A stretch of 64,000 bases of DNA, from the NCBI GenBank assembly GCA_965208975.1, contig CBDBQH010000003.1:1604792-1668791 (forward strand), in the 5' to 3' direction. Below, piece by piece: positions 2,379 to 54,215 of the stretch; position 1 is the stretch's first letter, and each line of letters begins with the position of its first letter. The DNA comes from Candidatus Poriferihabitaceae bacterium (GTDB lineage Bacteria; Pseudomonadota; Gammaproteobacteria; Arenicellales; Poriferihabitantaceae). Made by a program: the position numbers and the translations under genes. The notes beneath the pieces are model-generated. The model searched no databases, was not told the origin of the DNA, and saw nothing but the letters and a program-made list of their open reading frames with translations.

Positions 2379-2792
2379 GTGAAAAATCTATACATACTTG
2401 CGGCTACGCTTTTCTTGGTAAGTTGCTCTGACGACGCGAAAATTGCGTCGCGTAATCTGTCCAAATCGGCGGACAATTTCGAGATTGACCGGCGCATCGT
2501 TTTCTATAACGGAATTACAGACAGCTACATGCTGACTATCGAAGGAAAGTGTTCAATCGAGGACCAGAAGAATCAATTAGAAGTAACCTGCAAAATCGGG
2601 CATAACCAGTACAAAAAACATTTTCTCGGTTTGTCCGATAATGTGACCTACTTCGCGGAACAATTGAAAACGACTGATGTAAACGTATATCACCATCGTG
2701 TGACGTTTAAACCACAGCAGATCATCCCCGATATTGACTACCGTGGAAGCTTGGAAGAACTGATAGAAAATGATTCAGAAGACCCTGGTTAA
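2379..2792 (+). CDS. Lipoprotein, unknown function
   Basis: The N-terminus MKNLYILAATLFLVSCSDD has a signal peptide with an LVSC lipobox. GTG start. The local region is AT-richer than its flanks. Confidence 0.6.
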   Translation: MKNLYILAATLFLVSCSDDAKIASRNLSKSADNFEIDRRIVFYNGITDSYMLTIEGKCSIEDQKNQLEVTCKIGHNQYKKHFLGLSDNVTYFAEQLKTTDVNVYHHRVTFKPQQIIPDIDYRGSLEELIENDSEDPG

Positions 2793-11533: not shown

Positions 11534-11748
11534 CGCACACGAAAGACGATTCGGCCTTTGGTCAGATCATAAGGAGTGAGTTGAACGGTTACCTTGTCTC
11601 CGCGCAGTATCCGGATATAGTGCTTACGCATTTTCCCGGAGATATACGCAGTGATTTCATGCCCGTTTTCAAGTTCCACCCGAAACAACGTGTTGGGCAA
11701 GGCTTCTATGATCGTGCCCTCCATTTCTATGCCTTCTTCTTTTGCCAT
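11530..11748 (-). CDS. infA: Translation initiation factor IF-1
   Basis: [70 protein letters not shown]. Confidence 0.97.
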
Positions 11749-11847
11749 TGGATTACCATGTATTAAACAGGGGCGAAGTGTAAATTAAGCTACGGTTCAG
11801 GGCAAATGAAAACTGGCGCCCAAATTCCGCGATAGAGATTCAGGATT

Positions 11848-11892
11848 GTGTTTTCGGGCGGTGTGTTTTCAGGCGGTGTGTTTTCAGGCGGT
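11848..11892. repeat. 3 x 15-bp tandem repeat (gtgttttcRggcggt) upstream of paralog C
   Basis: Read directly from the sequence. Confidence 0.85.
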
Positions 11893-11952
11893 ATATTGAG
11901 TAGTCTGATTCTGATATAATCACCAACCCAACATAAAGGAGTATCCTTGATC

Positions 11953-12615
11953 ATGCCAACCAACGCCGTACCCACCTCGGACGAAATCTGGAAAATCCTG
12001 GGGGAGACTTCCGCCATCGGTAAAGAAACCGATAAGCGTCTGGATAAAACCAGCCGGGAAATGGCAGAATTTCGTATCAGTCAGGAAGAATCCAGCCGGA
12101 AGGCCAGCCGGGAAATAGAAGAGATTCGCGCCATTCAAAGAGAAACGGCAAAAGAGATAAAAGAAACCACCCGTGGACTGAAAGAAGCCAAAGCCCTGTT
12201 TACCACCCAATGGGGCCAATTGATGGAAAGTCTGGTAGAGGGGGATTTGATAGAGATTCTGAATCAATGGGACATAGCGATTGCCCATACCAGTACCCGT
12301 GTTAAACAAAGGGGTCGAGGTGATGATTATGAATATGACATTATTGCGGTAAACGGACGGGAAGTGGTAGTAGTAGAAGTGAAGACCACGTTGAAAGTAT
12401 CGGATGTCAAGGATTTTCTGGAGAGTTTAGGGAAGCTTACGACCCGTATGCCCTATCATAAAGACAAGATCATTTATGGAGCGGTGGCGTGGTTAAGAGC
12501 GGATGAGGAAGCGGAAGTTTATGCGGCGAAACAGGGATTGTTTGTGATACGGGCGACGGGCAGCAGCGCCCGTATTGTCAATCGGAAAGATTTCAAGCCG
12601 CAGGTCTTTTCCTGA
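11953..12615 (+). CDS. Coiled-coil + PD-(D/E)xK-like protein, paralog C
   Basis: It has the same length as paralog B (220 aa from the ATG). The first 16 aa (MPTNAVPTSDEIWKIL) and the C-terminal core (DDYEYDI..NG.EVVVVEVKTTLKV.DVKDF...GLFVIRATGSSA...DFKPQVFS) match, while the coiled-coil is divergent. Confidence 0.8.
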   Translation: MPTNAVPTSDEIWKILGETSAIGKETDKRLDKTSREMAEFRISQEESSRKASREIEEIRAIQRETAKEIKETTRGLKEAKALFTTQWGQLMESLVEGDLIEILNQWDIAIAHTSTRVKQRGRGDDYEYDIIAVNGREVVVVEVKTTLKVSDVKDFLESLGKLTTRMPYHKDKIIYGAVAWLRADEEAEVYAAKQGLFVIRATGSSARIVNRKDFKPQVFS

Positions 12616-12714
12616 AAACAGTACGGCGGGCACAGAGGGTCGCCCTGAATTTCCCGGATTGATGTGCCAAGGATGAGCCATAAGTGCGGTGATCACCATA
12701 ATGTTACTCTAAAA

Positions 12715-14547
12715 TCATTCCACCGTAACCGACTTGGCGAGGTTTCTGGGTTTGTCCACGTCGGTGCCTTTGATCAGGGCTACGTGGTAGGCGAGAAGCT
12801 GGAGGGGGATGGTGTAGATGATGGGGGCGATGGAGCTGTCGACCGGGGCTACGTTGGTGACCTGGAGGTTTTCCTGATTGGTCATTCTGGCGTTGGAGTC
12901 GGCGAAGACGATCAGTTTGCCGCCGCGGGCGCGCACTTCTTCGATGTTGCCCTTGAGCTTGTTCAGCAGGCGATCATTGGGGGCGACGGATATGACCGGC
13001 ATTTCGTTGTCCACCAGCGCCAATGGGCCATGCTTCAGTTCTCCGGCCGGGTAGGCTTCTGCATGAATATAAGAAATTTCCTTCAGTTTCAACGCTCCTT
13101 CCAGAGCAATCGGATAGTGTACGCCGCGTCCCAGGAACAGGGCATGATGCTTGTCTGCGAACTGCTCCGCAATGATCCGGATTACCGGCTCGAGTTCCAG
13201 CGAATCTTCTACCTTGCCAGGCAATTCCCGCAGTTCCCGCACTAGTCCGGCCTCGTCTTCTGCGGTCAGATTGAATCTGCGGCCAACCACGATGGTCAGC
13301 AGGCGCAGCGCGGTCAGTTGGGTCGTGAATGCCTTGGTCGAGGCGACTCCGATTTCCGCTCCCGCATGGGTCATCAGGACCAGGTCGGTTTCCCGCACCA
13401 GGGCGCTTTCCGCAACATTGCAAATTGCCAGGGAATGTTTATAACCTTCCGCTTTCGCCAGGCCTAAGGCAGTCAGCGTATCAATGGTTTCACCGGACTG
13501 GGACAGGGCGACCACCAGGCAATCGTCCGGCACGGCATGACTGCGGGAATGAAACTCACTGGCGATCTCGACCTGGCAGGGTACGCCGATCTCCTCAAAC
13601 CAGTGAAGGGCTACCATGCCGGCATGGTAACTGGTTCCGCAGGCGATGATCTGAACCGACCGGATGCGATCAAAGACGGCGCCGGCGGCGTTGCCGAAAC
13701 AGGCTTCAAGGACGCGGGTTCCGGTCAGCCGTCCTTCCAGCGTATTGGCAATCGCGACCCCTTGTTCGTGAATTTCCTTGACCATGAAGTGACGATAATC
13801 GCCGAGTTCGGTGGCATCTGCCGATATTGCGCTGACCTTGACTTCCCGGTGGCGGGGTTGACCGGCCAGGTCGGTGATCGTGATATGGCCGCCCTTGATG
13901 TCGACGATGTCGCCATTTTCGAGAATCAGGAACTCCCGCGTAACCGGGATGAGCGCCGACATGTCCGAAGCAATGAATGATTCACCCTGGCCGAGCCCGA
14001 CCACCAGTGGTGAACCTCGTCGCGCCCCGATCAGACGACCCGGTTCATCTGCGCTGATCACGCCAATGGCAAACGCGCCTTCCAGTACCGCGAGTGTTTT
14101 CTTGACCGATTCCAGAAGAGCCAGACCGTCCTGGATATGTCGATATATTTCGTTGACGATGACTTCGGTGTCGGTGTCGGAGTGAAATTCCATGCCGTCT
14201 GTGATTTGCGCCTGCCTGAGGCTCTCGTGGTTCTCGATAATGCCATTGCAGACCAGCGCGATTCGACCGCCGCTGATGTGAGGGTGGGCGTTGATTTCCG
14301 TGGGCGGGCCATGGGTTGCCCAGCGGGTATGGGCGATGCCGGTTGTGCCGTGCATGGCGCCGGAACCGGAAAGCGCCTTTTCCAGTTCGATGATTTTACC
14401 GACGGTGCGGGTACGTGAAATATTCCGCTCCGGGCCGATTAGCGCAATACCGGCAGAATCGTATCCCCGGTATTCCAGACGTTTCAGTCCGTCCAGCAGG
14501 AGCGGAAGAACATCAGACTTTGCGGCTGCGCCGACTATCCCGCACAT
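12715..14547 (-). CDS. glmS: Glutamine--fructose-6-phosphate aminotransferase
   Basis: It starts MCGIVGA, ends ...NLAKSVTVE and is 610 aa long. Confidence 0.97.
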   Translation of the reverse strand: MCGIVGAAAKSDVLPLLLDGLKRLEYRGYDSAGIALIGPERNISRTRTVGKIIELEKALSGSGAMHGTTGIAHTRWATHGPPTEINAHPHISGGRIALVCNGIIENHESLRQAQITDGMEFHSDTDTEVIVNEIYRHIQDGLALLESVKKTLAVLEGAFAIGVISADEPGRLIGARRGSPLVVGLGQGESFIASDMSALIPVTREFLILENGDIVDIKGGHITITDLAGQPRHREVKVSAISADATELGDYRHFMVKEIHEQGVAIANTLEGRLTGTRVLEACFGNAAGAVFDRIRSVQIIACGTSYHAGMVALHWFEEIGVPCQVEIASEFHSRSHAVPDDCLVVALSQSGETIDTLTALGLAKAEGYKHSLAICNVAESALVRETDLVLMTHAGAEIGVASTKAFTTQLTALRLLTIVVGRRFNLTAEDEAGLVRELRELPGKVEDSLELEPVIRIIAEQFADKHHALFLGRGVHYPIALEGALKLKEISYIHAEAYPAGELKHGPLALVDNEMPVISVAPNDRLLNKLKGNIEEVRARGGKLIVFADSNARMTNQENLQVTNVAPVDSSIAPIIYTIPLQLLAYHVALIKGTDVDKPRNLAKSVTVE

Positions 14548-23903: not shown

Positions 23904-24671
23904 TCAATCAAAACCGTATTTGTACTTTACTTCGGAATCCGAATTCACCTGGGCGTGGAATGACACGATAATCCGCTCCTCTTCACCGTTGTAGGGAAAG
24001 GCCGTATGTTTGAGGTATGAGGGAAATATGATCAGGCTGCCGTCCTCAGGGTAGCTGGTCCAGGTGTTGTCCTGAAGATAGTAGTTGCCCCAATCGCCGT
24101 GCCCTGCGGCGCTTTCTTCCAGGTGGGGGCCATAAAACCGGGTTACGCCGTTCAACATTCCATTGGGCAGGCGGTCGTCGTTCGACTGACTGGCTGAGCC
24201 GGCCTGGACATAATATACGCCGGACCACGAGCAATTGCCATGGACATGAGTTTCATGGAAGGTGAATCCGTTGCTGATCTGGAACCACATGCCAGTCACA
24301 TCAACCCTCAGCGTTTTCAGCGCAAATTGTTTCCAGTATTTTTCGTTGAGGTTTCTGGAAATTTGATAAACCCCGTCGGTAATGAATGACTTGAGAACAT
24401 CCAGCGCCTGGTTATCAATATTGTTTGCGAAATGATCCGGGCTGATGAAACCGGACTCCGGGGTAGCCGAGCTTTCTTGCGAATTTTCCTGTCTGTACTG
24501 GTGGAAAAGTCTTTTCAACTCAGCATTGATTGCCTGATGATTTTCCAGTCTGCTCCTGGAAATAGTGGCGGGCCAAAGCTCGATGAACGGGTTTTGATCG
24601 TGACTGGACAATTTTGAGTGACTGGCGTTAATAGTATTTCCGGGAACCGGGTCGTGAGAGAATGATACCAT
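23904..24671 (-). CDS. Putative 2OG-Fe(II) oxygenase-like protein (TIGR02466-type)
   Basis: FHETHVHGNCSWSGVYYVQAG ... IIFPSYLKHTAFPY resembles the TIGR02466/2OG-FeII_Oxy_5 pattern. This is from memory and was not searched. Confidence 0.5.
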   Translation of the reverse strand: MVSFSHDPVPGNTINASHSKLSSHDQNPFIELWPATISRSRLENHQAINAELKRLFHQYRQENSQESSATPESGFISPDHFANNIDNQALDVLKSFITDGVYQISRNLNEKYWKQFALKTLRVDVTGMWFQISNGFTFHETHVHGNCSWSGVYYVQAGSASQSNDDRLPNGMLNGVTRFYGPHLEESAAGHGDWGNYYLQDNTWTSYPEDGSLIIFPSYLKHTAFPYNGEEERIIVSFHAQVNSDSEVKYKYGFD

Positions 24672-24752
24672 ATAGAGCAGAGTCGTGAACCAGACTCCGC
24701 CAGAAATAAACCAGGGCGCGCTAACACAATTTGATTAAAGGTACATTGACAA

Positions 24753-25160
24753 TCAGGACATCGGAAAGGACACCGTGAAATGCTCCACCCTGTACAGGTC
24801 ACGGTTAGGCGTATGCGCGACCTCTTCGGCTGGCATAGAATCTACAATGGCATCCAGTTTTTCATCACAGTCATGATCCTTAACCTCTATATATAACAAC
24901 TCATCGAGAGTAAAACGCTCAGCAAAACTAATCTCGCGGTCACCATCAATTTTAATATTTCGATACGTGAAGCCGGTATCCGTACAGCCTGGAAGGCCAA
25001 AAATCCATTTAAGCTGATTTTCTTCCGAACTCCGTGGGGTCAAAGCCGGTTTTGCGGCGCCGAAATCCTTGTTACTGCGTATGACCTTTCCCATCGTAAA
25101 TGGCCGGGCGGGCATCAGCCCGGAAATGGCGGTTCGGCTATCCATCGCCTTCAATACCTC
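24753..25160 (-). pseudogene. Fragment of an EcoRII-like restriction endonuclease (internal piece of the N-terminal half)
   Basis: PRSSEENQLKWIFGLPGCTDTGFTYRNIKIDGDREISFAERFTLDELLYIE aligns with AKGSTEENQLTWLFGLSVQELGAPFTYQDIENGDDQQVGFATRFILEELGIE of the 26053..27282 enzyme. There is no matching N- or C-terminal domain, and the apparent TTG start lies inside the 101-bp repeat. Confidence 0.6.
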
Positions 25161-25261
25161 AGCAGAAAGCTGGATCAATCAACAAGGCCAATATGACTTA
25201 GGCAGGTAGGTCATCGCCGACTCTCCCGGTGCACCGCCTCCACCAGCGTTTGCACGCGCTC
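25161..25261. repeat. Left direct repeat: a duplicate of the last 17 hemE codons plus 50 bp downstream
   Basis: agcagaaagctggatcaatcaacaaggccaatatgacttaggcaggtaggtcatcgccgactctcccggtgcacc...ccaccagcgtttgcacgcgctc matches 30378..30478. Confidence 0.9.
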
Positions 25262-26053
25262 CGGGTAATTATTGCTGTCCCGTTTTTCAATTGCTTTGAG
25301 CGCATCCTCAGGCAGGGTTGCATAGACCTCTTCGACATGCTTGGGTTCAGACATCGTTTTCTCAGCGATCAGGTTCAGAAGTTTGAACAAAGTCTCGGCA
25401 GTCGCTCTATCATCACGAAGGTCGACCTGGCCGGGGTGGACCGCGTTATTACCGATTACACGGACTGCATCAAGAGCCATCTGAGCACGTTGATCAAGTC
25501 CATCTTTAACCAATTCACCTATATCATCGTTGAGGGTCTTCCCCGATTTACCAAGTTCCTTGCAAAGCTTTTGAATGGCCAACCGGATCAAGGCAGCCGA
25601 ACCTCTCGGCGACAAGTCAAGGATGCTGCTGGCTTCGTCATAGTCTCGACGGATGTCATCAGGCAGGTCAGGATTTGCAGGCGGCGCCTCACCGCGCTGT
25701 GGCCAAATCAGCTTGTCATGGGTCCAGATCGAAATATCTTTGCAGTTGAAACATTCCGAAACAAATGTGTTGTGAAGCAAAAAATTCGCATAATACTCAC
25801 CCTTGCGTTCTCCGAAAAACGGGCGACCATTAGCCATCTTTTCAACCCATTGAAAGAGTTTTTCTCGATCCTCGGCATCCTCAATATGTTCGAAATTGAC
25901 TTCTCCTCGGTTCTCTGGACTAATGACAATAGGAAGCCGTTTTTTTTCTGATGTTGGAAGAGCGCACAAGAGCCACCAACGCTGCATTGCCAACGCGCCA
26001 CAGTGTGGACAGTTGAAAGCAGTTTCTTTAACTGAAGGAGAAACATATTTCAT
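25211..26053 (-). CDS. Zn-ribbon + DUF4145 domain protein; the last 17 aa are encoded by the duplicated hemE end
   Basis: CPHCG...CFNC cysteine pairs, then SPRGSAALIRLAIQKLCKELG...DAVRVIGNNAVHPG, the DUF4145 signature from memory. Its start overlaps the endonuclease stop (TAATG). The C-terminus [17 protein letters not shown] compares with hem[18 protein letters not shown]. Confidence 0.75.
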   Translation of the reverse strand: MKYVSPSVKETAFNCPHCGALAMQRWWLLCALPTSEKKRLPIVISPENRGEVNFEHIEDAEDREKLFQWVEKMANGRPFFGERKGEYYANFLLHNTFVSECFNCKDISIWTHDKLIWPQRGEAPPANPDLPDDIRRDYDEASSILDLSPRGSAALIRLAIQKLCKELGKSGKTLNDDIGELVKDGLDQRAQMALDAVRVIGNNAVHPGQVDLRDDRATAETLFKLLNLIAEKTMSEPKHVEEVYATLPEDALKAIEKRDSNNYPERVQTLVEAVHRESRR

Positions 26054-27282
26054 TATTTATTACTCTTCTGTTGCTTTCGTATCTGTCCAATGAATTCATG
26101 AATGTCCATCAACCACGCTCGCTGGGCAACCGAGCAGGTGCAGTGCAGCTCTCTAGGCAAGACTAACTGCAGCCTGTTGGCCTGCATTTCATTTGTCTGA
26201 TTTTCACTGATACCGGGTTCAAGGGTCAGAAGATGCTTGTCCGGTATCCTTGCCGCTTCCGAGAGAACCTGGCGCCACCTGTCCTTGCAAGTCGACTTGA
26301 CACCCAGCATGGAAAGGCCGGTTGCCGGGAACTTTTTGTCATGGTATTCCCCTGCACCGGGAAACAGAAAGTCAGGTTTGGCTTTGTGTTCGGTGACAGC
26401 CTGCCGGTCATATTTCAGTGCAAAGACACGAAATATTTCTGCAAGGTGATGTTCCAGTGCATGTCCGGCACGGGATTTCCTCCTGTTCTGGACACGGAGT
26501 GAATACTTGACAAATCCATCAACGTCCACGACCTTTCCAACCAGAAATCCTGCCCGCAGACGGCCGGACACGACACGGCGCTCCATGTGGCGAAACAATT
26601 TTTTCTCTTGATCAATCCAGGCAAGCAGAGCCGCATCCGGGTCATCCTGCGGATTGATTTCAGGAAGTGCTTTTCGGGCTTCTTCCGAAAATTTCTCAGT
26701 TTTTGGAAAGGCATCCCCAAAGGGTTCCAGAATTCTATCCAGCCGGTCAGTTTCCGGTTCCTCAGTCTCTATACCCAGTTCCTCAAGAATGAATCGTGTA
26801 GCAAAACCCACCTGCTGATCATCACCATTTTCAATATCCTGGTACGTAAAGGGGGCGCCCAACTCCTGAACAGATAGACCAAAAAGCCATGTAAGCTGAT
26901 TTTCTTCCGTACTTCCCTTGGCTACCACAATAATCATGAACTCACCTGCAGGCCTCCTGGCGATAATGAGCAGGTCTCCTGCACTGGCACACTCCATCAC
27001 AAGATTGCTCCTGAAATACAACCTGTGCTCACTGCGGGTGGGATGTAATTCACGCGCGTCATACCATGTGATATGAGTATCTTCGGAAAAACCCTCATTT
27101 TCTCCACCAAACCACACAAACCGGGTCGGCTGGTTTACCAGCCTTTCCGGACCCAGCAGCCTCTTCATCGGCATGACTCCATTGAACTCGTGCTGGTTTG
27201 AGCTTTCGGGATGGGCTTCCACAGCACTCAGTCGTTTTGCGACCACACCGACAAAATATTCAGACAAAAACCCTTTTTTCAT
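26053..27282 (-). CDS. Type II restriction endonuclease, EcoRII-like
   Basis: The N-terminus YFVGVVAKRLSAVEA...NQHEFNG resembles the EcoRII effector domain. The C-terminal half RRKSRAGHALEHHLAEIF...KPDFLFPG...KSTCKDRWRQVLSEAARI..KHLLTLEPGIS resembles the EcoRII catalytic domain. Its neighbours are vsr and dcm. Confidence 0.7.
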   Translation of the reverse strand: MKKGFLSEYFVGVVAKRLSAVEAHPESSNQHEFNGVMPMKRLLGPERLVNQPTRFVWFGGENEGFSEDTHITWYDARELHPTRSEHRLYFRSNLVMECASAGDLLIIARRPAGEFMIIVVAKGSTEENQLTWLFGLSVQELGAPFTYQDIENGDDQQVGFATRFILEELGIETEEPETDRLDRILEPFGDAFPKTEKFSEEARKALPEINPQDDPDAALLAWIDQEKKLFRHMERRVVSGRLRAGFLVGKVVDVDGFVKYSLRVQNRRKSRAGHALEHHLAEIFRVFALKYDRQAVTEHKAKPDFLFPGAGEYHDKKFPATGLSMLGVKSTCKDRWRQVLSEAARIPDKHLLTLEPGISENQTNEMQANRLQLVLPRELHCTCSVAQRAWLMDIHEFIGQIRKQQKSNK

Positions 27283-27761
27283 TTCTCACTGCCCCTTGCG
27301 TTTTCTTCCCGCACACCTTCAACCGTGTGATCCCCACGTCCTGAACACAACCACTTTTCTGTCGAGCTTATTACCCTGTCCGGGCCGAGCCTGGTTTTCC
27401 CTTTCAAGGCACATTCGTGAATCACGGCAACACGCCAGCCTTCCTCTTTCAGGGCCTTTCGGGTTTCTTCATCCTTCTGCCGGTTGCGGGTGATTTTCCT
27501 GCACCAGAATTCCTGTCTGGTAGACGGCCATTTGAACAAATGACAATCATGACCATGCCAGAAGCAGCCATTGACAAAAATGATAGCCTTGTATTTCGGG
27601 AATGACATATCCGGTTTTCCGGGGAGCTTGCGATCATGCAGCCTATATCGGAACCCTTTAGCATGCAGAGCCTTGCGAATAAAAAGCTCTGGCTTCGTAT
27701 CCTTTGCACGGATACCAGCCATCATGCGCCTGCGGGTTTCCGAAGAGACAATATCAGGCAA
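27279..27761 (-). CDS. vsr: Very short patch repair endonuclease
   Basis: RRRMMAGIRAKDTKPELFIRKALHAKGFRYRLHDRKLPGKPDMSFPKYKAIIFVNGCFWHGHDC. It forms an ATGA overlap with the endonuclease start. Confidence 0.92.
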   Translation of the reverse strand: MPDIVSSETRRRMMAGIRAKDTKPELFIRKALHAKGFRYRLHDRKLPGKPDMSFPKYKAIIFVNGCFWHGHDCHLFKWPSTRQEFWCRKITRNRQKDEETRKALKEEGWRVAVIHECALKGKTRLGPDRVISSTEKWLCSGRGDHTVEGVREENARGSEK

Positions 27762-27767
27762 TGGCCG

Positions 27768-29078
27768 TCAGATTCCTCTTTCCTCTTCAAATACAAATTC
27801 CGGCACAAGTTCAACCTGTTTTTTATCTTTGCCCATTACGGTGTGAATATGGGGAAGCATGAACTGTGCGACCGCATCAACAACCGGAACGACAACTGCA
27901 TTGCCAAACTGCTTGTAGGCTTGTGTGTCGGAAACAGGAATCTCGAAATGTAGTTTTCCGGGACCATCGAAACCCATCAGGCGAGCGCATTCTCTCGGAG
28001 TCAGACGGCGCGGCCTGTTTCCATGCTGCCGAACCAGTATCTCCGATCCGTCCTTGTAGTAGCGGGCGGACAGTGTACGGGAAACATCATCCGGCCCAAC
28101 AAGTCCATAACCGAATCCGTTTCCTCTTGCCTTGTGTTTTGCGGCATAGTTTTCAAGATAGGTCCACAGGTTTTCCGAAAGCGTATATTTGGGGTTGACC
28201 GTGCCGGACGGTCCGTGTGTATAAGGTGGCTCTTCCAGTTCAGTGCCATCCTGTGGATGCAGAATTGTGCGCATCACCGGCCCATTTCCCGGATCAGGCA
28301 CGTCAAGCTGGCTGAAATCAAAACCGGTATCCCCACGAAAACCTGCAATAAAAATCCTCTCGCGGTTTTGCGGGACAACCCCCTTTGCATTGATCACGCG
28401 CCAGTCGATATAGTAACCGAGATCCTCCTCCAGGGTTTTTCGGATAATGCGGAATGTGTTCCCCCCGTCATGACTAACCAGGTTTTTCACGTTTTCCAGC
28501 AGAAAGGCAGGTGGTCGGTGATTGGCAATAATACGTGCTGTATCAAAAAACAGGGTGCCCTGTGCCTCACAGGAAAAACCGTGTTTTTTCCCCAGCGCAT
28601 TTTTCTTTGAAACACCGGCTATGGAAAATGGCTGACAGGGAAATCCTGCAACCAGCACATCATGCACAGGTATTTCCTCCTCTGCTATAGCGGTAATATC
28701 ACCTGCAACAGGGTGATCGCACGGAAAGTTCGCTTGATAAGTCTTCCGGCAGGCAATATTCCATTCACTGGTAAAAACACACTGCCCACCAATGGACTCG
28801 AACCCCATACGAAGGCCACCGATTCCGGCAAACAAGTCAATAAAGGTGAATGCGGGTTTTTCCGCAGGCCGATCCAGAATACACATCCTGGCCTGTCGCG
28901 ATAACCAGTCGGTAACAGCCTTTCTGGGAATTGTTTCCCCGGATTCCCAACGATAAATGGTTCTGACATTGTACCCCGTTCTTGAGGCAATCTCTTTCCT
29001 GGGCAAGCCCGATTTCTCAATAAGTCGGGATATTTCTGTCTGCATGGATACTGGCACTCTCATTTCTTTCTGGGTCAA
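27768..29078 (-). CDS. dcm: DNA (cytosine-5)-methyltransferase with an N-terminal HTH domain
   Basis: Motif I FIDLFAGIGGLRMGF, motif IV GFPCQPFS, motif VI ENV and QFGNAV are present. The N-terminal HTH is EISRLIEKSGLPRKEIASRTGYNVRTIYRWESG. Confidence 0.93.
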   Translation of the reverse strand: MTQKEMRVPVSMQTEISRLIEKSGLPRKEIASRTGYNVRTIYRWESGETIPRKAVTDWLSRQARMCILDRPAEKPAFTFIDLFAGIGGLRMGFESIGGQCVFTSEWNIACRKTYQANFPCDHPVAGDITAIAEEEIPVHDVLVAGFPCQPFSIAGVSKKNALGKKHGFSCEAQGTLFFDTARIIANHRPPAFLLENVKNLVSHDGGNTFRIIRKTLEEDLGYYIDWRVINAKGVVPQNRERIFIAGFRGDTGFDFSQLDVPDPGNGPVMRTILHPQDGTELEEPPYTHGPSGTVNPKYTLSENLWTYLENYAAKHKARGNGFGYGLVGPDDVSRTLSARYYKDGSEILVRQHGNRPRRLTPRECARLMGFDGPGKLHFEIPVSDTQAYKQFGNAVVVPVVDAVAQFMLPHIHTVMGKDKKQVELVPEFVFEEERGI

Positions 29079-29246
29079 TTTTTGACATTATGACATAACA
29101 AGATAGCCTTTTCAATTTTATTCTGGTGCCAGATGCCTACGAAGTGATTTTATTCTTCACGGGGTTGAATCTACGGAATCCGCACTCATATATTAGAAAG
29201 TCAATTTTGAATTGCCATTTACAGTCCAAATACAGGAGAATCTAAA

Positions 29247-29579
29247 ATGACCAGCAAGTTCGAACTATTCAAAGATACAAGGGGTGAATATCGATTTCGA
29301 CTCAAGGCAGGCAACGGCGAAATTATTCTAAAAAGCGAAGGGTATGGAAGCAAAGCGGGTGCGGAAAACGGAATCACCTCGGTTAAAACCAACTCACCCG
29401 ATGGTTCACGCTACGACCGCAAGGTATCGACTAATAACAAGTATTTCTTCAATCTCAAAGCTGCCAACAGTCAAGTGATCGGCACTTCAGAGATGTACGA
29501 AACCGCTGCCGGTCGGGACAATGGCATTGAAAGCGTGAAGACCAACGCTCCAATAGCTGTGATCAACGACCTGACGTAG
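29247..29579 (+). CDS. YegP-family (tandem DUF1508) protein
   Basis: There are two repeats of the F.LK..NGE.I..SE.Y....GAENGI.SVK pattern. A GGAG RBS is present. Confidence 0.8.
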   Translation: MTSKFELFKDTRGEYRFRLKAGNGEIILKSEGYGSKAGAENGITSVKTNSPDGSRYDRKVSTNNKYFFNLKAANSQVIGTSEMYETAAGRDNGIESVKTNAPIAVINDLT

Positions 29580-29645
29580 TTTGGCCACTGGAAACGGGGG
29601 TCTTGTTCACATAAAGATGAAACCGGAAATATAGGAGTTTGCTAC

Positions 29646-30110
29646 ATGCGTACTATCCTTGCAGTGTTCCTCGTGTTCGTTTGTACCCTGGAGTTACTGT
29701 TCGCCCAAACGAACGGTGGGACTGATGCTGTGAGCAACGGTGCCTCAAGCAACTCTGGGCAGCCTTGCTATTGGTCGCAACCGCTTGTATGGGTCGAAAT
29801 AGCTTACATCACTGTAGTGTTGGTAACAGGTTTTTTGTGTACTTTCTTTCGCAGTAATGGGAGTGAGCGTGCCAAGCTGAAGGGTATGAATCTGCCCGAA
29901 GGAACGATTCGCAGTATGTTGGCACTGATCATAGTAGGTTCTTTTGTGATTTTCCTCGTCTTGGGCTCGGAACTGAAAAACTTTGAAAGCGTTGTCACTG
30001 CCTTCGGAACTCTCGCCGGGGCTGTATTGGGGTTTTACTTTGCACATCGTGGTGCACAAACAGAAAAAATTGAACAACAGAGTAATCACTCTGACCCGCC
30101 AGCGAATTGA
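29646..30110 (+). CDS. Membrane protein, unknown function (signal peptide + about 3 TM)
   Basis: MRTILAVFLVFVCTLELLFAQ followed by hydrophobic segments. An AGGAG RBS is present. Confidence 0.55.
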   Translation: MRTILAVFLVFVCTLELLFAQTNGGTDAVSNGASSNSGQPCYWSQPLVWVEIAYITVVLVTGFLCTFFRSNGSERAKLKGMNLPEGTIRSMLALIIVGSFVIFLVLGSELKNFESVVTAFGTLAGAVLGFYFAHRGAQTEKIEQQSNHSDPPAN

Positions 30111-30331
30111 AGACTGTCAGCGCCAAAGCTGGTGATGTTATTGAACTGGAAATCAAACGCGTTGTGCGTCATGTTCGCGCAGATTGGAACAATGTCGCTT
30201 TATGGCAAGGAGCCGATGAAGAACCTATGTTACTGAAAGATGTACCAGACCACCCCTTGATGAACATGAGTGGGAATGCTAATGCACAACCCCCCCCACC
30301 CCGGCGAAATTATAAAAGAGCTTTGTCTTGA
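30107..30331 (+). other. Composite ORF: unknown N-terminal part running into the start of a frameshifted HigA-like gene
   Basis: It has a TTG start overlapping the previous stop. From the ATG at 30260 it reads [12 protein letters not shown] and then leaves the HigA frame at a C8 tract. Confidence 0.35.
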
Positions 30332-30413
30332 CCCTCTTGACCTTACTGTCACATCAGCGGCCGAGGCGTTAGGGGTGAGCAGAAAGCTGGATCAATCAAC
30401 AAGGCCAATATGA
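30260..30413 (+). pseudogene. higA: HigA/VapI-type HTH antitoxin remnant, frameshifted at the C8 tract (30290..30297) and truncated at the right direct repeat
   Basis: With 7 instead of 8 C the reading is [42 protein letters not shown], the classic HPGEIL...LGVSR HigA N-terminus. Homology stops at 30377/30378, where the repeat begins. Confidence 0.6.
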
Positions 30414-30478
30414 CTTAGGCAGGTAGGTCATCGCCGACTCTCCCGGTGCACCACTTCCACCAGCGTTTGCACGCGCTC
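30378..30478. repeat. Right direct repeat (the authentic hemE 3' end plus 50 bp downstream)
   Basis: See the entry for 25161..25261. Confidence 0.9.
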
Positions 30479-31471
30479 GGGGTTAATGCCGGGGTGAATG
30501 CCGTGGCCGAGGTTGAAGATATGTCCTTCGCCCGGGCCGAAGTCTTCGAGTACACGCTTCGCTTCCTGTTCCACCTTGCCATTGGAAGCATAGAGTACGG
30601 TGGGGTCCATATTGCCTTGCAGGGCAACCGCCCCTGCTGTCCTTTTCCTGGCCTCACCCAGTGAGACCGTCCAGTCCAGTCCGATCGCGTCGCATCCGGT
30701 TTGTGCGATTCGCTCCAGCCACCCGCACCCGCCTTTGGTAAACAGGGTCACCGGGGTTGCAGAACAGGCTGGATCCGTTTTCAGCGCGGATACGATTTGC
30801 GCCATGTAATCCAGCGAGAATTTCTGGTAGTCCGGCGTACTCAACACGCCGCCCCATGTGTCGAATACCATGATGGTCTGCGCTCCCGCCATAACCTGCG
30901 CCTTCAGATAGTCAATCGCCGCCGCAGTGATCTTCTGCAACAATCGGTGCATGGTTGCCGGTTGATCATGCATCATACCCTTGACCAGCATAAAATCCCG
31001 GCTCGACCCTCCTTCGACCATATAGGTAGCCAGAGTCCATGGACTGCCGCCAAATCCAATCAGCGGGACTTTACCTTCGAGCTCCCTGCGAGTCATCCGG
31101 ATGGCTTCCATGACGTAGCCCAGTTGTGTTTCTACCTCCACTGCCGGCAATTTTTCGATCTCTGTCGCCGACCGCAACGGGCGTTCAAATCGGGGTCCGA
31201 TTCCTTCATTCAGTGTCAATCCCAGGCCCATGGCGTCCGGGATGGTCAGAATGTCGGAGAAAATAATGGCGGCGTCCAGGTCGAATCTGTGAATTGGTTG
31301 TAGCGTCACTTCACAGGCCAGTGCGGGATTTTTGCACAGTGTCAGGAAATCTCCGGCGCGGGCGCGGCTTTGCCGATACTCCGGCAGGTAGCGTCCGGCC
31401 TGCCGCATGATCCAGATCGGCGTACAGTCAACCGGCTGACGCTTCAACGCTCTTAAAAATCGGTCGTTCAT
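30428..31471 (-). CDS. hemE: Uroporphyrinogen decarboxylase
   Basis: [33 protein letters not shown]... over a 347-aa ORF. Confidence 0.96.
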
Positions 31472-41975: not shown

Positions 41976-42455
41976 ATGGAAACCCCATACGACAGTCGGC
42001 AGATCGCCAATCGCCTGATCCGGATATCGAATCAGTATGGCATGCCCATGTCGATTATGCGTGTACTCAAACTCGCCTATCTGGTACATGGCTGGACCTT
42101 GGCGCTCATTGAGAAACCTTTAGTCAACGATTATGTTCAGGCATGGAAGTACGGCCCTGTTATCCCAAGCATTTACTATGCCTTCCGTCCGTATGGAATA
42201 TACGATCTCAAACCGATTCCGCTTGTTCAGGAGGATGATATGGATGACGAGATGGATAGCTTGATGGTATCCGTCTACGGTCTGTATGACCATCTCTCCG
42301 CAAACCAGTTATCGGCTTTGACACATATCAAGGGCGGCCCCTGGCACACCGTATATGAGCGCGGGAAACGAGGAGTTATTATCCCTAACGAATTGATTGC
42401 AGAGCACTTCAAAGACAAGCTGGAACGATCAGGAAATGGTGACACCACCCACTAG
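41976..42455 (+). CDS. Panacea (DUF4065, GepA/SocA-like) domain protein, putative antitoxin
   Basis: SIMRVLKLAYLVHGWTLALIEKPLVNDYVQAWKYGPVIPSIYYAF fits the DUF4065 core (KL.YL..g..l......pl....f.AW.yGPV). This is from memory and was not searched. Confidence 0.65.
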   Translation: METPYDSRQIANRLIRISNQYGMPMSIMRVLKLAYLVHGWTLALIEKPLVNDYVQAWKYGPVIPSIYYAFRPYGIYDLKPIPLVQEDDMDDEMDSLMVSVYGLYDHLSANQLSALTHIKGGPWHTVYERGKRGVIIPNELIAEHFKDKLERSGNGDTTH

Positions 42456-42789
42456 TGACCCGGATATTGCAGCCCTCGACGTGGATGCAATTCGGGAGCT
42501 GAACCCGCTAGACAAACACCACATGAGGCTACGATGGGCAGCCATCTCCGTTGCAATCCTCACCATTATTGCAGCAGGTATCCTGAAAGTATGTATCCTG
42601 CGTTACTCCAATCTTTGGCAGAGTATGGCGGATGCTTTCGTTTTTTTAGCCATTGCGCCGATTGTATGTATCACTATTATCGTGACCTTCATCCTGATTG
42701 GATCATTCAGGAAATCAGGAGATGCTGAAATGAATCTGACTGGCGCCGCGCGGCTGGCTGGTCAAACATTGAGAGGGACACCGGAATAA
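42436..42789 (+). CDS. Small two-TM membrane protein overlapping the Panacea-domain gene; candidate toxin partner
   Basis: The hydrophobic segments are WAAISVAILTIIAAGILKVCIL and AFVFLAIAPIVCITIIVTFILIG. It overlaps the upstream stop by 20 nt. The start could be 42397, 42436 or 42523. Confidence 0.5.
   Translation: MVTPPTSDPDIAALDVDAIRELNPLDKHHMRLRWAAISVAILTIIAAGILKVCILRYSNLWQSMADAFVFLAIAPIVCITIIVTFILIGSFRKSGDAEMNLTGAARLAGQTLRGTPE

Positions 42790-50846: not shown

Positions 50847-54215
<3,369 letters not shown>

Follow-up and report, generated by a model that had tools for sequence, protein, structure and literature searches.

Repeated copies of the hemE 3′ end in an integrase-free defence and toxin-antitoxin hot spot of a sponge symbiont

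Why the 3′ end of a core gene should be present a second time, more than 5 kb away and on the far side of a set of restriction-modification (R-M) genes, is the question raised by the 64,000-nt stretch of Candidatus Poriferihabitaceae DNA analysed here (the window, on which positions are given unless another locus is named). The gene is hemE, encoding uroporphyrinogen decarboxylase, and a preliminary description of the same DNA had read the interval between the two copies as a discrete defence island integrated at a 101-bp attachment (att) site formed by the end of this gene. We compared the locus with loci from other genomes (L-numbers below), including 14 related sponge-symbiont genomes, which are metagenome-assembled genomes (MAGs) of Arenicellales / Ca. 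Poriferihabitaceae. The comparison shows the locus to be the occupied state of an integrase-free hot spot of defence and toxin-antitoxin (TA) genes that begins right after the hemE stop codon. This answer is carried by the empty sites of relatives, the lack of recombinase genes, an ancient junction shared among genomes, a recent re-copying of the real gene end, a microhomology deletion and a mosaic interior, all of which are observed; the recombination pathway, which we take to combine homology-anchored and illegitimate joining, and the order of events were inferred from the sequence comparisons.

The repeat pair and the hot spot downstream of hemE

A repeat search of the region from 23 to 33 kb found a single family of direct repeats, 25161-25266 and 30378-30483, which are 106 nt long, 97% identical and spaced by 5217 nt. 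Pairwise alignment placed all 3 mismatches within the hemE-derived part of the copies and showed that similarity drops abruptly on both sides, and the 64-kb window contains exactly two instances of a 23-mer of the repeat, compared to none in 100 shuffles. The pair and its parent gene are composed as follows.

30428..31471, minus strand: hemE, uroporphyrinogen decarboxylase (TIGR01464, 5.6e-133; PF01208, 1.3e-136), the conserved core gene at the edge of the hot spot
30378..30483: proximal (right) repeat copy, made of the true hemE 3′ end (30428-30483, last 56 nt) and the last 50 nt of the convergent gene higA (30378-30427)
25161..25266: distal (left) repeat copy, made of an old hemE-3′ scar (25211-25266) abutting the stop codon of a DUF4145 gene and 50 nt of the higA 3′ end (25161-25210)

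The repeat described earlier as 101 bp with 2 mismatches is this same repeat, real and slightly under-extended, and the statement that the right copy is the genuine hemE end plus 50 bp of downstream DNA holds, the placement of hemE at 30428-31471 being supported by the TIGR01464 profile. The HemE protein is 88-94% identical to those of L001-L006 and L054. The 50 nt beyond hemE, read on the plus strand, belong to a convergent antitoxin gene of the HigA type, of which they are the 3′ end. When the repeat was folded and compared with shuffles, no special single-strand structure was seen on either strand (z-scores 0.4-1.0), and an attC-like structured site was rejected because the folding was no better than that of the shuffles; for an integron-like cassette array, neither an IntI integrase nor an attC-like structured site was present at the repeat. 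Two metagenome scans, one with a lineage-specific 31-mer of the hemE/higA junction and one with a degenerate hemE-3′ 33-mer, returned no match.

In the relatives, hemE faces the block rpoH-hslVU-sspAB-petABC and is convergent with rpoH across a variable spot whose size ranges from empty (25 nt) to 15 kb. In L001-L006 and L054 the distance from hemE to the rpoH-led block is 0.7-7.5 kb, and the content is different in every genome, the following cargo being found in six of these loci.

L001: Dam and EcoRV-family R-M pair (L001 11529-13271)
L002: HipBA, NOV_C and an EcoRII-N fragment
L003: GmrSD, a Gp49/helix-turn-helix (HTH) TA pair and a PIN TA pair
L004: HigBA and NOV_C
L005: MazEF
L006: Dcm-Vsr and a split HipA

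The GmrSD type IV enzyme is present in both L003 and L090 (at about 11660-13767), L090 being, like L080 and L081/L088, a further variant of the hot spot. A conserved open reading frame (ORF) of 187-202 aa, which we call 'A', overlaps the hemE stop codon in L003, L054 and L090.

The empty state is seen in L086, L087 and L089, where 25 nt separate the hemE and rpoH stop codons, so that the check for empty sites suggested by the preliminary description was borne out. A strain with a HemE identical to that of these three, L088 (=L081), carries 15.1 kb at the same spot, from 11045 onward, between flanks that are 99% identical; this block holds patatin and CD-NTase genes, HEPN/DUF5343, mazEF, insertion sequence (IS) copies, a decayed EcoRII gene and a DUF4145 gene. 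The only mobility-related genes found in the hot spots, a Transposase_mut fragment and a DDE_Tnp_1 transposase gene, are both in L081/L088, and no integrase, transposase or relaxase gene lies in or beside the window interval, as had been noted before. Most cargo differences among the genomes have no flanking repeats, and this includes the 15-kb indel between strains of identical HemE. Other cargo at the same place had also been anticipated: different cargo is indeed present in the relatives, but the hemE-3′ copies start at different positions and most of the cargo differences are repeat-free. Sliding-window identity of the gltD-hemE region to relatives looks mosaic in the profile.

An ancient scar and its recent re-copying

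The outer edge of the left repeat is a junction between the stop codon of the DUF4145 gene and position -57 of hemE (AATAATTAA joined to CCGGAGCGCGTGCAAACG), and it is identical in the window, in L080 (10782-10840) and in L081 (10776-10834). The same junction can be written as AATAATTA, then A or C, then CCGGAGCGCGTG, the variable base lying at the stop codon. Because it is common to three genomes, the left copy is an ancient scar, older than these lineages. The native DUF4145 protein ends at the junction, its homologues being 259-264 aa long and ending in ..AIEKRDGNN and a stop codon. At window positions 25265-25267 (minus strand) the stop codon TAA has become TAC, whereas L080 and L081 keep TAA; this leads to read-through of 17 hemE-derived codons up to the hemE stop and to a protein of 280 aa compared to about 262 aa. 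The scars of L080 and L081 have diverged (about 85-88%), and the sequence that follows them matches nothing found 3′ of hemE. A 'fossil higA' behind the old scars of L080 was considered and not supported, local alignment against shuffles giving z 0.1-1.6.

A second and independent scar, in which DNA from upstream of mazE is joined to hemE at about -93, is common to L002, L005 and L080. Its simplest form is seen in L005, which differs from the empty L086 by an additional 904 bp that carry mazEF, with 74 bp duplicated; beyond the scar the two loci are colinear (L005 11876-21041 and L086 10972-20135). Each old scar continues as far as the stop codon of hemE and there gives way to the former downstream DNA, which argues for just one illegitimate join (cargo to hemE) per event. 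This join lies at different hemE positions in the two events (-57 and about -93), and at the DUF4145-hemE join there is a microhomology, ATTAACC/ATAAACC. In a survey of 78 hemE loci, a second hemE-3′ copy was clear in this clade only, L016 adding one weak match of 29 nt; a hemE-3′ duplication acting as a widespread att site was rejected on this distribution.

These junctions bear on the idea of a site-specific genomic island, with its integrase lost or acting in trans, an attP matching the hemE 3′ end, and the two repeats as attL and attR. Such an island would explain why the duplicated 3′ end restores the target gene, as in islands that target tRNA genes, and it would fit the existence of empty sites, the recurrence of hemE-3′ copies in several relatives and the successive copies that delimit modules in L080 in the manner of tandem island arrays. 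We nevertheless hold it to be quite improbable, because the hot spot contains no integrase gene, either in the window or in any of the 14 related genomes, and because the only two ancient junctions lie at different hemE positions, with no constant crossover. Moreover, the scar abuts a coding stop and leaves no room for arm sites, the cargo differences are for the most part repeat-free even in the 15-kb indel, the copies are limited to a narrow clade among the 78 loci, and the repeat lacks the special structure looked for above. Direct repeats of a gene's 3′ end, as this locus warns, are by themselves no evidence for an att site or for a single island.

The inner part of each repeat has a younger history, which can be followed in pieces of higA and of a mazE-like gene.

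30282..30413, plus strand: proximal higA pseudogene, codons 1-35 intact, then joined out of frame to the last codons
25093..25160, plus strand: middle segment of a distal higA (codons about 42-62), running directly into the left repeat and absent from the proximal higA
30094..30278, plus strand: fragment of a mazE-like antitoxin gene, its C-terminal two thirds, the toxin partner being absent

An intact higA of 94 aa stands at hemE in L001, L004 and L080; that of L004 matches HTH_3 and adjoins a HigB toxin gene. Compared to these, the proximal higA of the window has an 89-nt deletion between two 8-nt AGCAGAAA repeats, a microhomology deletion, and this deletion makes the inner edge of the right repeat and trims the shared segment to 106 nt. 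The distal fragment retains the 89 nt lost proximally, and its homology ends at 25092/25093; an extension of the distal higA to about 25035 was not borne out, since homology stops at 25093. The segment 30276-30385 is 97% identical to the intact higA of L004 and L080, and 25093..25160 is 93-96% identical to the higA of L001, L004 and L080, so that the two window pieces (30276-30385 and 25093-25209) are contiguous in these three loci at 93-97% identity.

Two deletions occur in both copies of the window: one of 1 nt that is window-specific, and one of about 85 nt that brings the stop codons of higA and hemE together, the second of which L002 also has where its true hemE gene ends. All 3 mismatches between the copies fall near the start of the hemE part, within its first 31 nt, and the other 75 nt, which bear the lineage-specific indels, are identical. 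The indels common to both copies indicate a recent renewal of the scar, for which the real junction of hemE and higA was the template; from there came the distal copy's right part and 117 nt of higA. A sliding identity profile did not single out either window copy as the original. Over its final 57 nt the L005 scar matches the hemE gene of the same genome without a single difference (100%), lineage-specific bases included, which indicates that exchange between scar and real gene end recurs.

The mazE fragment is 94.6% identical to L005 11447-11632, which lies beside PemK/MazF, and 96.2% identical to L080. For the higA and mazE fragments taken together, identity to L001, L004, L005 and L080 is 92-97%, compared to 86-90% for the flanks. 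Since the fragments (30094-30385) are 94-97% identical and the flanking core genes 86% in the comparison with L004, L005 and L080, these values suggest a recent exchange of TA modules between species.

The cargo and the rearranged left flank

The GC content between the repeats is 0.488, compared to 0.544 for the rest of the window, and the GC at third codon positions (GC3) is 0.47-0.55 in the interior genes compared to 0.63-0.71 in the core genes gltBD, hemE, pot, clpB and glmUS. The earlier impression of an AT-richer interior was thus confirmed when composition was checked, and family profiles bore out the gene content proposed with it (dcm-vsr-EcoRII-like restriction endonuclease (REase)-DUF4145 plus YegP/membrane cargo), as follows.

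25211..26053, minus strand: DUF4145 / PD-T7-4-like single-gene defence protein (PF13643, 7.4e-17; PADLOC PD-T7-4, 1.3e-77)
26053..27282, minus strand: EcoRII-type REase (catalytic domain PF09019, 3.9e-67, residues 230-398)
27279..27761, minus strand: Vsr very-short-patch repair endonuclease (PF03852, 4.8e-32; TIGR00632, 2.6e-42)
27768..29078, minus strand: HTH-fused C5 cytosine DNA methyltransferase (MTase), Dcm-like (PF00145, 4.2e-79; TIGR00675; N-terminal HTH_3; PADLOC MTase_II, 2.4e-145)
29247..29579, plus strand: YegP/DUF1508 protein with two repeats (PF07411, 3.3e-45)
29646..30110, plus strand: membrane protein ORF of 154 aa (GC3 0.49)

Residues 212-401 of the REase match the EcoRII structures PDB 1NA6 and 3HQG (1e-39 to 2e-40), and residues 1-210 gave no family or PDB match and no match to the EcoRII-N model. 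In the DUF4145 protein, the PADLOC PD-T7-4 profile was matched over positions 40-209 of 211 in the best stretch, so that the protein matches a PD-T7-4-like predicted defence protein. Its homologues stand alone in the two unrelated genomes checked (L082 and L083), and for this reason, together with the PD-T7-4 match, we rejected the idea that DUF4145 is an integral part of the R-M operon. The membrane ORF had no Pfam, NCBIfam or PADLOC match, and yegP and the membrane gene were seen only in the window, no relative being found in the 81 loci L001-L081 (by tblastn for the membrane ORF). The sequence CCWGG, the EcoRII/Dcm site and by analogy the putative target here, occurs 236 times in the whole window compared to 304 expected from a third-order Markov model, a moderate under-representation.

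The cargo genes do not share one history. The dcm and vsr genes are 83.8% identical in DNA to L006 11215-13011, where they stand directly after hemE, and this divergence is the same as that of the flanks. Decayed copies of ecoRII, 80-84% identical, are present in L080 and L081, and DUF4145 with its scar is 87-88% identical to the counterparts in the same two loci, which carry decayed vsr and ecoRII alongside an intact DUF4145 (84-88% identical). With identities of 80-97% to different relatives, the parts of the interior have separate histories and form a mosaic; the piece-by-piece differences, and the resident higA and mazE fragments inside, exclude one discrete island.

The mosaic is also what weakens an explanation by R-M insertion with long target duplication, in which the R-M unit, as a selfish element, would have inserted itself into the 3′ end of hemE, doubled about 100 bp of this target and become able to amplify or leave through the repeats. 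The descriptive criteria for this class are restriction and modification genes inside an insert of <20 kb, a repeat of >30 bp and no mobility genes (Furuta, Abe and Kobayashi 2010, PMC2853133; such insertions are treated also by Nobusato et al. 2000), and in the window dcm and an EcoRII-type REase gene lie within 5.1 kb of inserted DNA, the repeat measures 106 bp and mobility genes are absent. L001 and L004 each have one unbroken hemE-higA copy, and the difference between L005 and L086 at this site is a textbook indel with long target duplication. This clean example, however, carries mazEF and no R-M system. In the window itself the scar abuts a PD-T7-4/DUF4145 gene that occurs alone elsewhere (L082, L083), the event is old, its junction being common to three genomes, the interior includes the resident higA and mazE pieces, the inner edge of the repeat comes from a later deletion and marks no insertion boundary, and the left flank is unalignable beyond about 170 nt. 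An R-M unit as the agent therefore seems unlikely to us; the R-M, PD-T7-4 and TA genes are best explained as cargo and not as agents of movement.

The left flank is composed of debris from the hot spot and of core genes that lie apart from hemE in relatives.

24753..25031, minus strand: N-domain fragment from another EcoRII-like REase, left over from other cargo (GC3 0.45)
24632..24752: rearrangement junction between hot-spot debris and the core block TIGR02466-pot-clpB-glmUS; homology to L084 and L085 ends at 24631

Debris of the hot spot thus continues to the left of the left repeat (24753-25160), about 60 nt between the EcoRII-like fragment and 25093 being without assignment. In L084 and L085 a Methyltransf_11 gene precedes TIGR02466, and in the L005 genome TIGR02466 and hemE are about 357 kb apart. 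Neither rpoH nor its block is present in the whole window (1-64000). Because the hot spot of hemE is fused to TIGR02466-pot-clpB-glmUS in the same orientation, a single inversion is insufficient to explain the arrangement. The breakpoint lies inside the hot spot, which leaves the interval without an intact 'left attachment flank', and the left neighbour is a rearrangement junction and not the ancestral partner rpoH, which argues against a simple picture of an island between its flanks.

The debris could at first sight be the remains of a simple tandem duplication, by unequal sister-chromatid exchange, of the whole unit from the hemE 3′ end to DUF4145, with the second unit decayed on the left. 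The DUF4145-hemE-3′ junction does resemble the join of a tandem duplication, and to the left of the repeat the remnants of higA and of an EcoRII-like gene have the order and orientation expected of such an origin. Yet the junction is older than the window lineage, and the EcoRII-like fragment has only 42% protein identity to the island REase (residues 124-196), compared to 97% between the repeats, and 56% to a fragment at L002 14491-14685. A duplication of the whole unit was rejected on this difference, and we consider this origin very unlikely.

Still less credible, in our opinion, is that the repeat or the odd left flank, or both, come from a chimeric join of strains in metagenome assembly. 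It is true that the relatives are all MAGs, that left-flank synteny breaks exactly at the hot spot and that strain-level heterogeneity at the locus is extreme. The DUF4145-hemE-3′ junction was however assembled independently in two other genomes, the repeat copies differ at 3 sites and have different and interpretable flanks, and a repeat of 106 bp is too short to mislead long-read assembly. A misassembly is conceivable in the rearranged flank.

Four further features of the window were noted away from hemE.

1506-2174 and 11947-12615, plus strand: paralogous ORFs of 222 aa whose N-termini are almost the same (LIMPTNAVPTSDEIWKIL...) and which weakly match a Hjc/PD-(D/E)XK-like nuclease; they may be a repeated selfish or defence gene
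2379-2792, plus strand: ORF of 137 aa with a strong Phage_VG64 match (5.8e-54), among otherwise cellular genes
41976-42789, plus strand: SocA/Panacea-domain antitoxin-like ORF (159 aa) overlapping a 130-aa ORF, just after the PBP1 gene, which may be another small TA-like insertion
50847-54215, plus strand: ORF of 1122 aa with an initial run of PASQ repeats and a weak Calx-beta match, which could encode a surface or adhesion protein typical of symbionts

Proposed mechanism and comparison with known systems

We consider it probable, though far from settled, that the locus is an integrase-free hot spot in which host recombination, anchored on the hemE 3′ end and completed by illegitimate joins at the far side, leaves scars that are used again. 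Modules would enter and leave through recombination on homologous DNA of related strains, usually with both crossovers in the conserved flanks, so that no repeats are left. Occasionally one end would pair on the hemE 3′ end and the other would join illegitimately, and the old hemE 3′ end of the recipient would be displaced distally as a scar. The left repeat would have begun as such a scar, formed in the distant past at the stop of the DUF4145/PD-T7-4 coding sequence and passed on together with the dcm-vsr-ecoRII-DUF4145 genes. Later the 56-nt scar may have served as the homologous anchor for a second event, by unequal exchange, gene conversion or break-induced copying, in which the real hemE end and part of the adjacent higA would have been copied beside the scar, with an illegitimate join at 25092/25093. 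The 89-nt deletion between the 8-nt repeats would then have removed the middle of the proximal higA and left a shared segment of 106 nt.

This account leaves part of the preliminary description standing. The hemE 3′ end does bound a variable, compositionally foreign and defence-rich region, but not a discrete att-integrated island: the interior is a mosaic, the left outer edge is the ancient junction of three genomes, and the inner edges come from recent copying and a microhomology deletion. Among the origins that had been offered for an island without mobility genes (decay, mobilisation in trans, or assembly by recombination between successive islands), the last comes closest to the comparisons.

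Several points weigh against our account. The description of the distal copy as a hybrid depends on just 3 variable sites. The left flank of the window aligns to relatives for only about 170 nt before it is rearranged, in contrast to L001 and L004, where hemE-higA is contiguous and single-copy; a clean empty-site comparison for the window lineage is for this reason impossible, and part of the structure could stem from the rearrangement itself. The window sequence probably belongs to a MAG, so that its joins rest on assembly. Classical homology-facilitated illegitimate recombination usually deletes recipient DNA and does not duplicate the anchor, and a recombinase acting in trans would also be compatible with the sequence.

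A functional role for the hemE-3′ copies, as 'homology handles' through which a module loops out as a circle by host RecA and re-enters a related hemE end by a single crossover, has in our judgement only a small chance of being correct. If it were, the hot spot would be an integrase-free, homology-addressed cassette system, in which the addictive nature of the R-M and TA cargo makes loss costly, and the fact that scars are repeatedly made uniform with the true gene end, as in the window and in L005, would be handle maintenance and not an accident.

Among known systems, the gene trio resembles EcoRII-Dcm-Vsr in that a C5-MTase, Vsr and an REase with the EcoRII catalytic domain (PDB 1NA6) form one co-oriented cluster; it differs in the N-terminal 210 residues of the REase, which have no EcoRII-N match, and in the N-terminal HTH of the MTase, and CCWGG is the putative specificity of the window system by analogy alone. 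With R-M insertions by long target duplication the locus shares, on its hemE side, the single repeat copy of the compared genomes, and also repeats that could support amplification or loss, but the edges of the window repeat are of different ages, an ancient junction, a recent re-copying and a deletion. As in integrative islands of tRNA genes and other gene 3′ ends, the duplicated target end keeps the gene intact, and modules in L080 are separated by repeat copies; unlike them, it has no integrase, variable starts of the duplication, mostly repeat-free changes of cargo and no arm regions.

The pathway that we propose is close to homology-facilitated illegitimate recombination, reportedly described by de Vries and Wackernagel in 2002. 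In this process one end is homologous and the other illegitimate (PMC3240628). The hemE 3′ end or its scar would be the anchor and the illegitimate join would be of the microhomology type, with foreign DNA added next to a conserved gene; here, however, the anchor is duplicated and recipient DNA is not deleted, and the process is read from comparative sequence.

The closest likeness is to integrase-free hot spots flanked by core genes. Many hot spots of horizontal gene transfer have no mobile elements and show recombination in the core genes beside them (Oliveira et al. 2017, PMC5635113), and 'core defense hotspots' have been described in P. aeruginosa (Johnson et al. 2023, PMC10250203). In the same way hemE and rpoH bracket a variable, lower-GC cargo rich in defence and TA genes, with empty sites and no integrase genes, whose turnover is best explained by recombination in conserved flanks. 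What differs is that scars of a core-gene 3′ end are kept inside and re-used as recombination homology, that the rpoH flank of the window is replaced by an unrelated core block, and that the hosts are uncultivated sponge symbionts, to which both integrase-free defence hot spots and R-M contexts with long target duplication are hereby extended. The locus is a well-resolved natural record of the build-up of defence and TA genes without a dedicated recombinase; it is no new kind of system, and the detail it adds to the known ones is that the scars of a core-gene end persist and get recycled.

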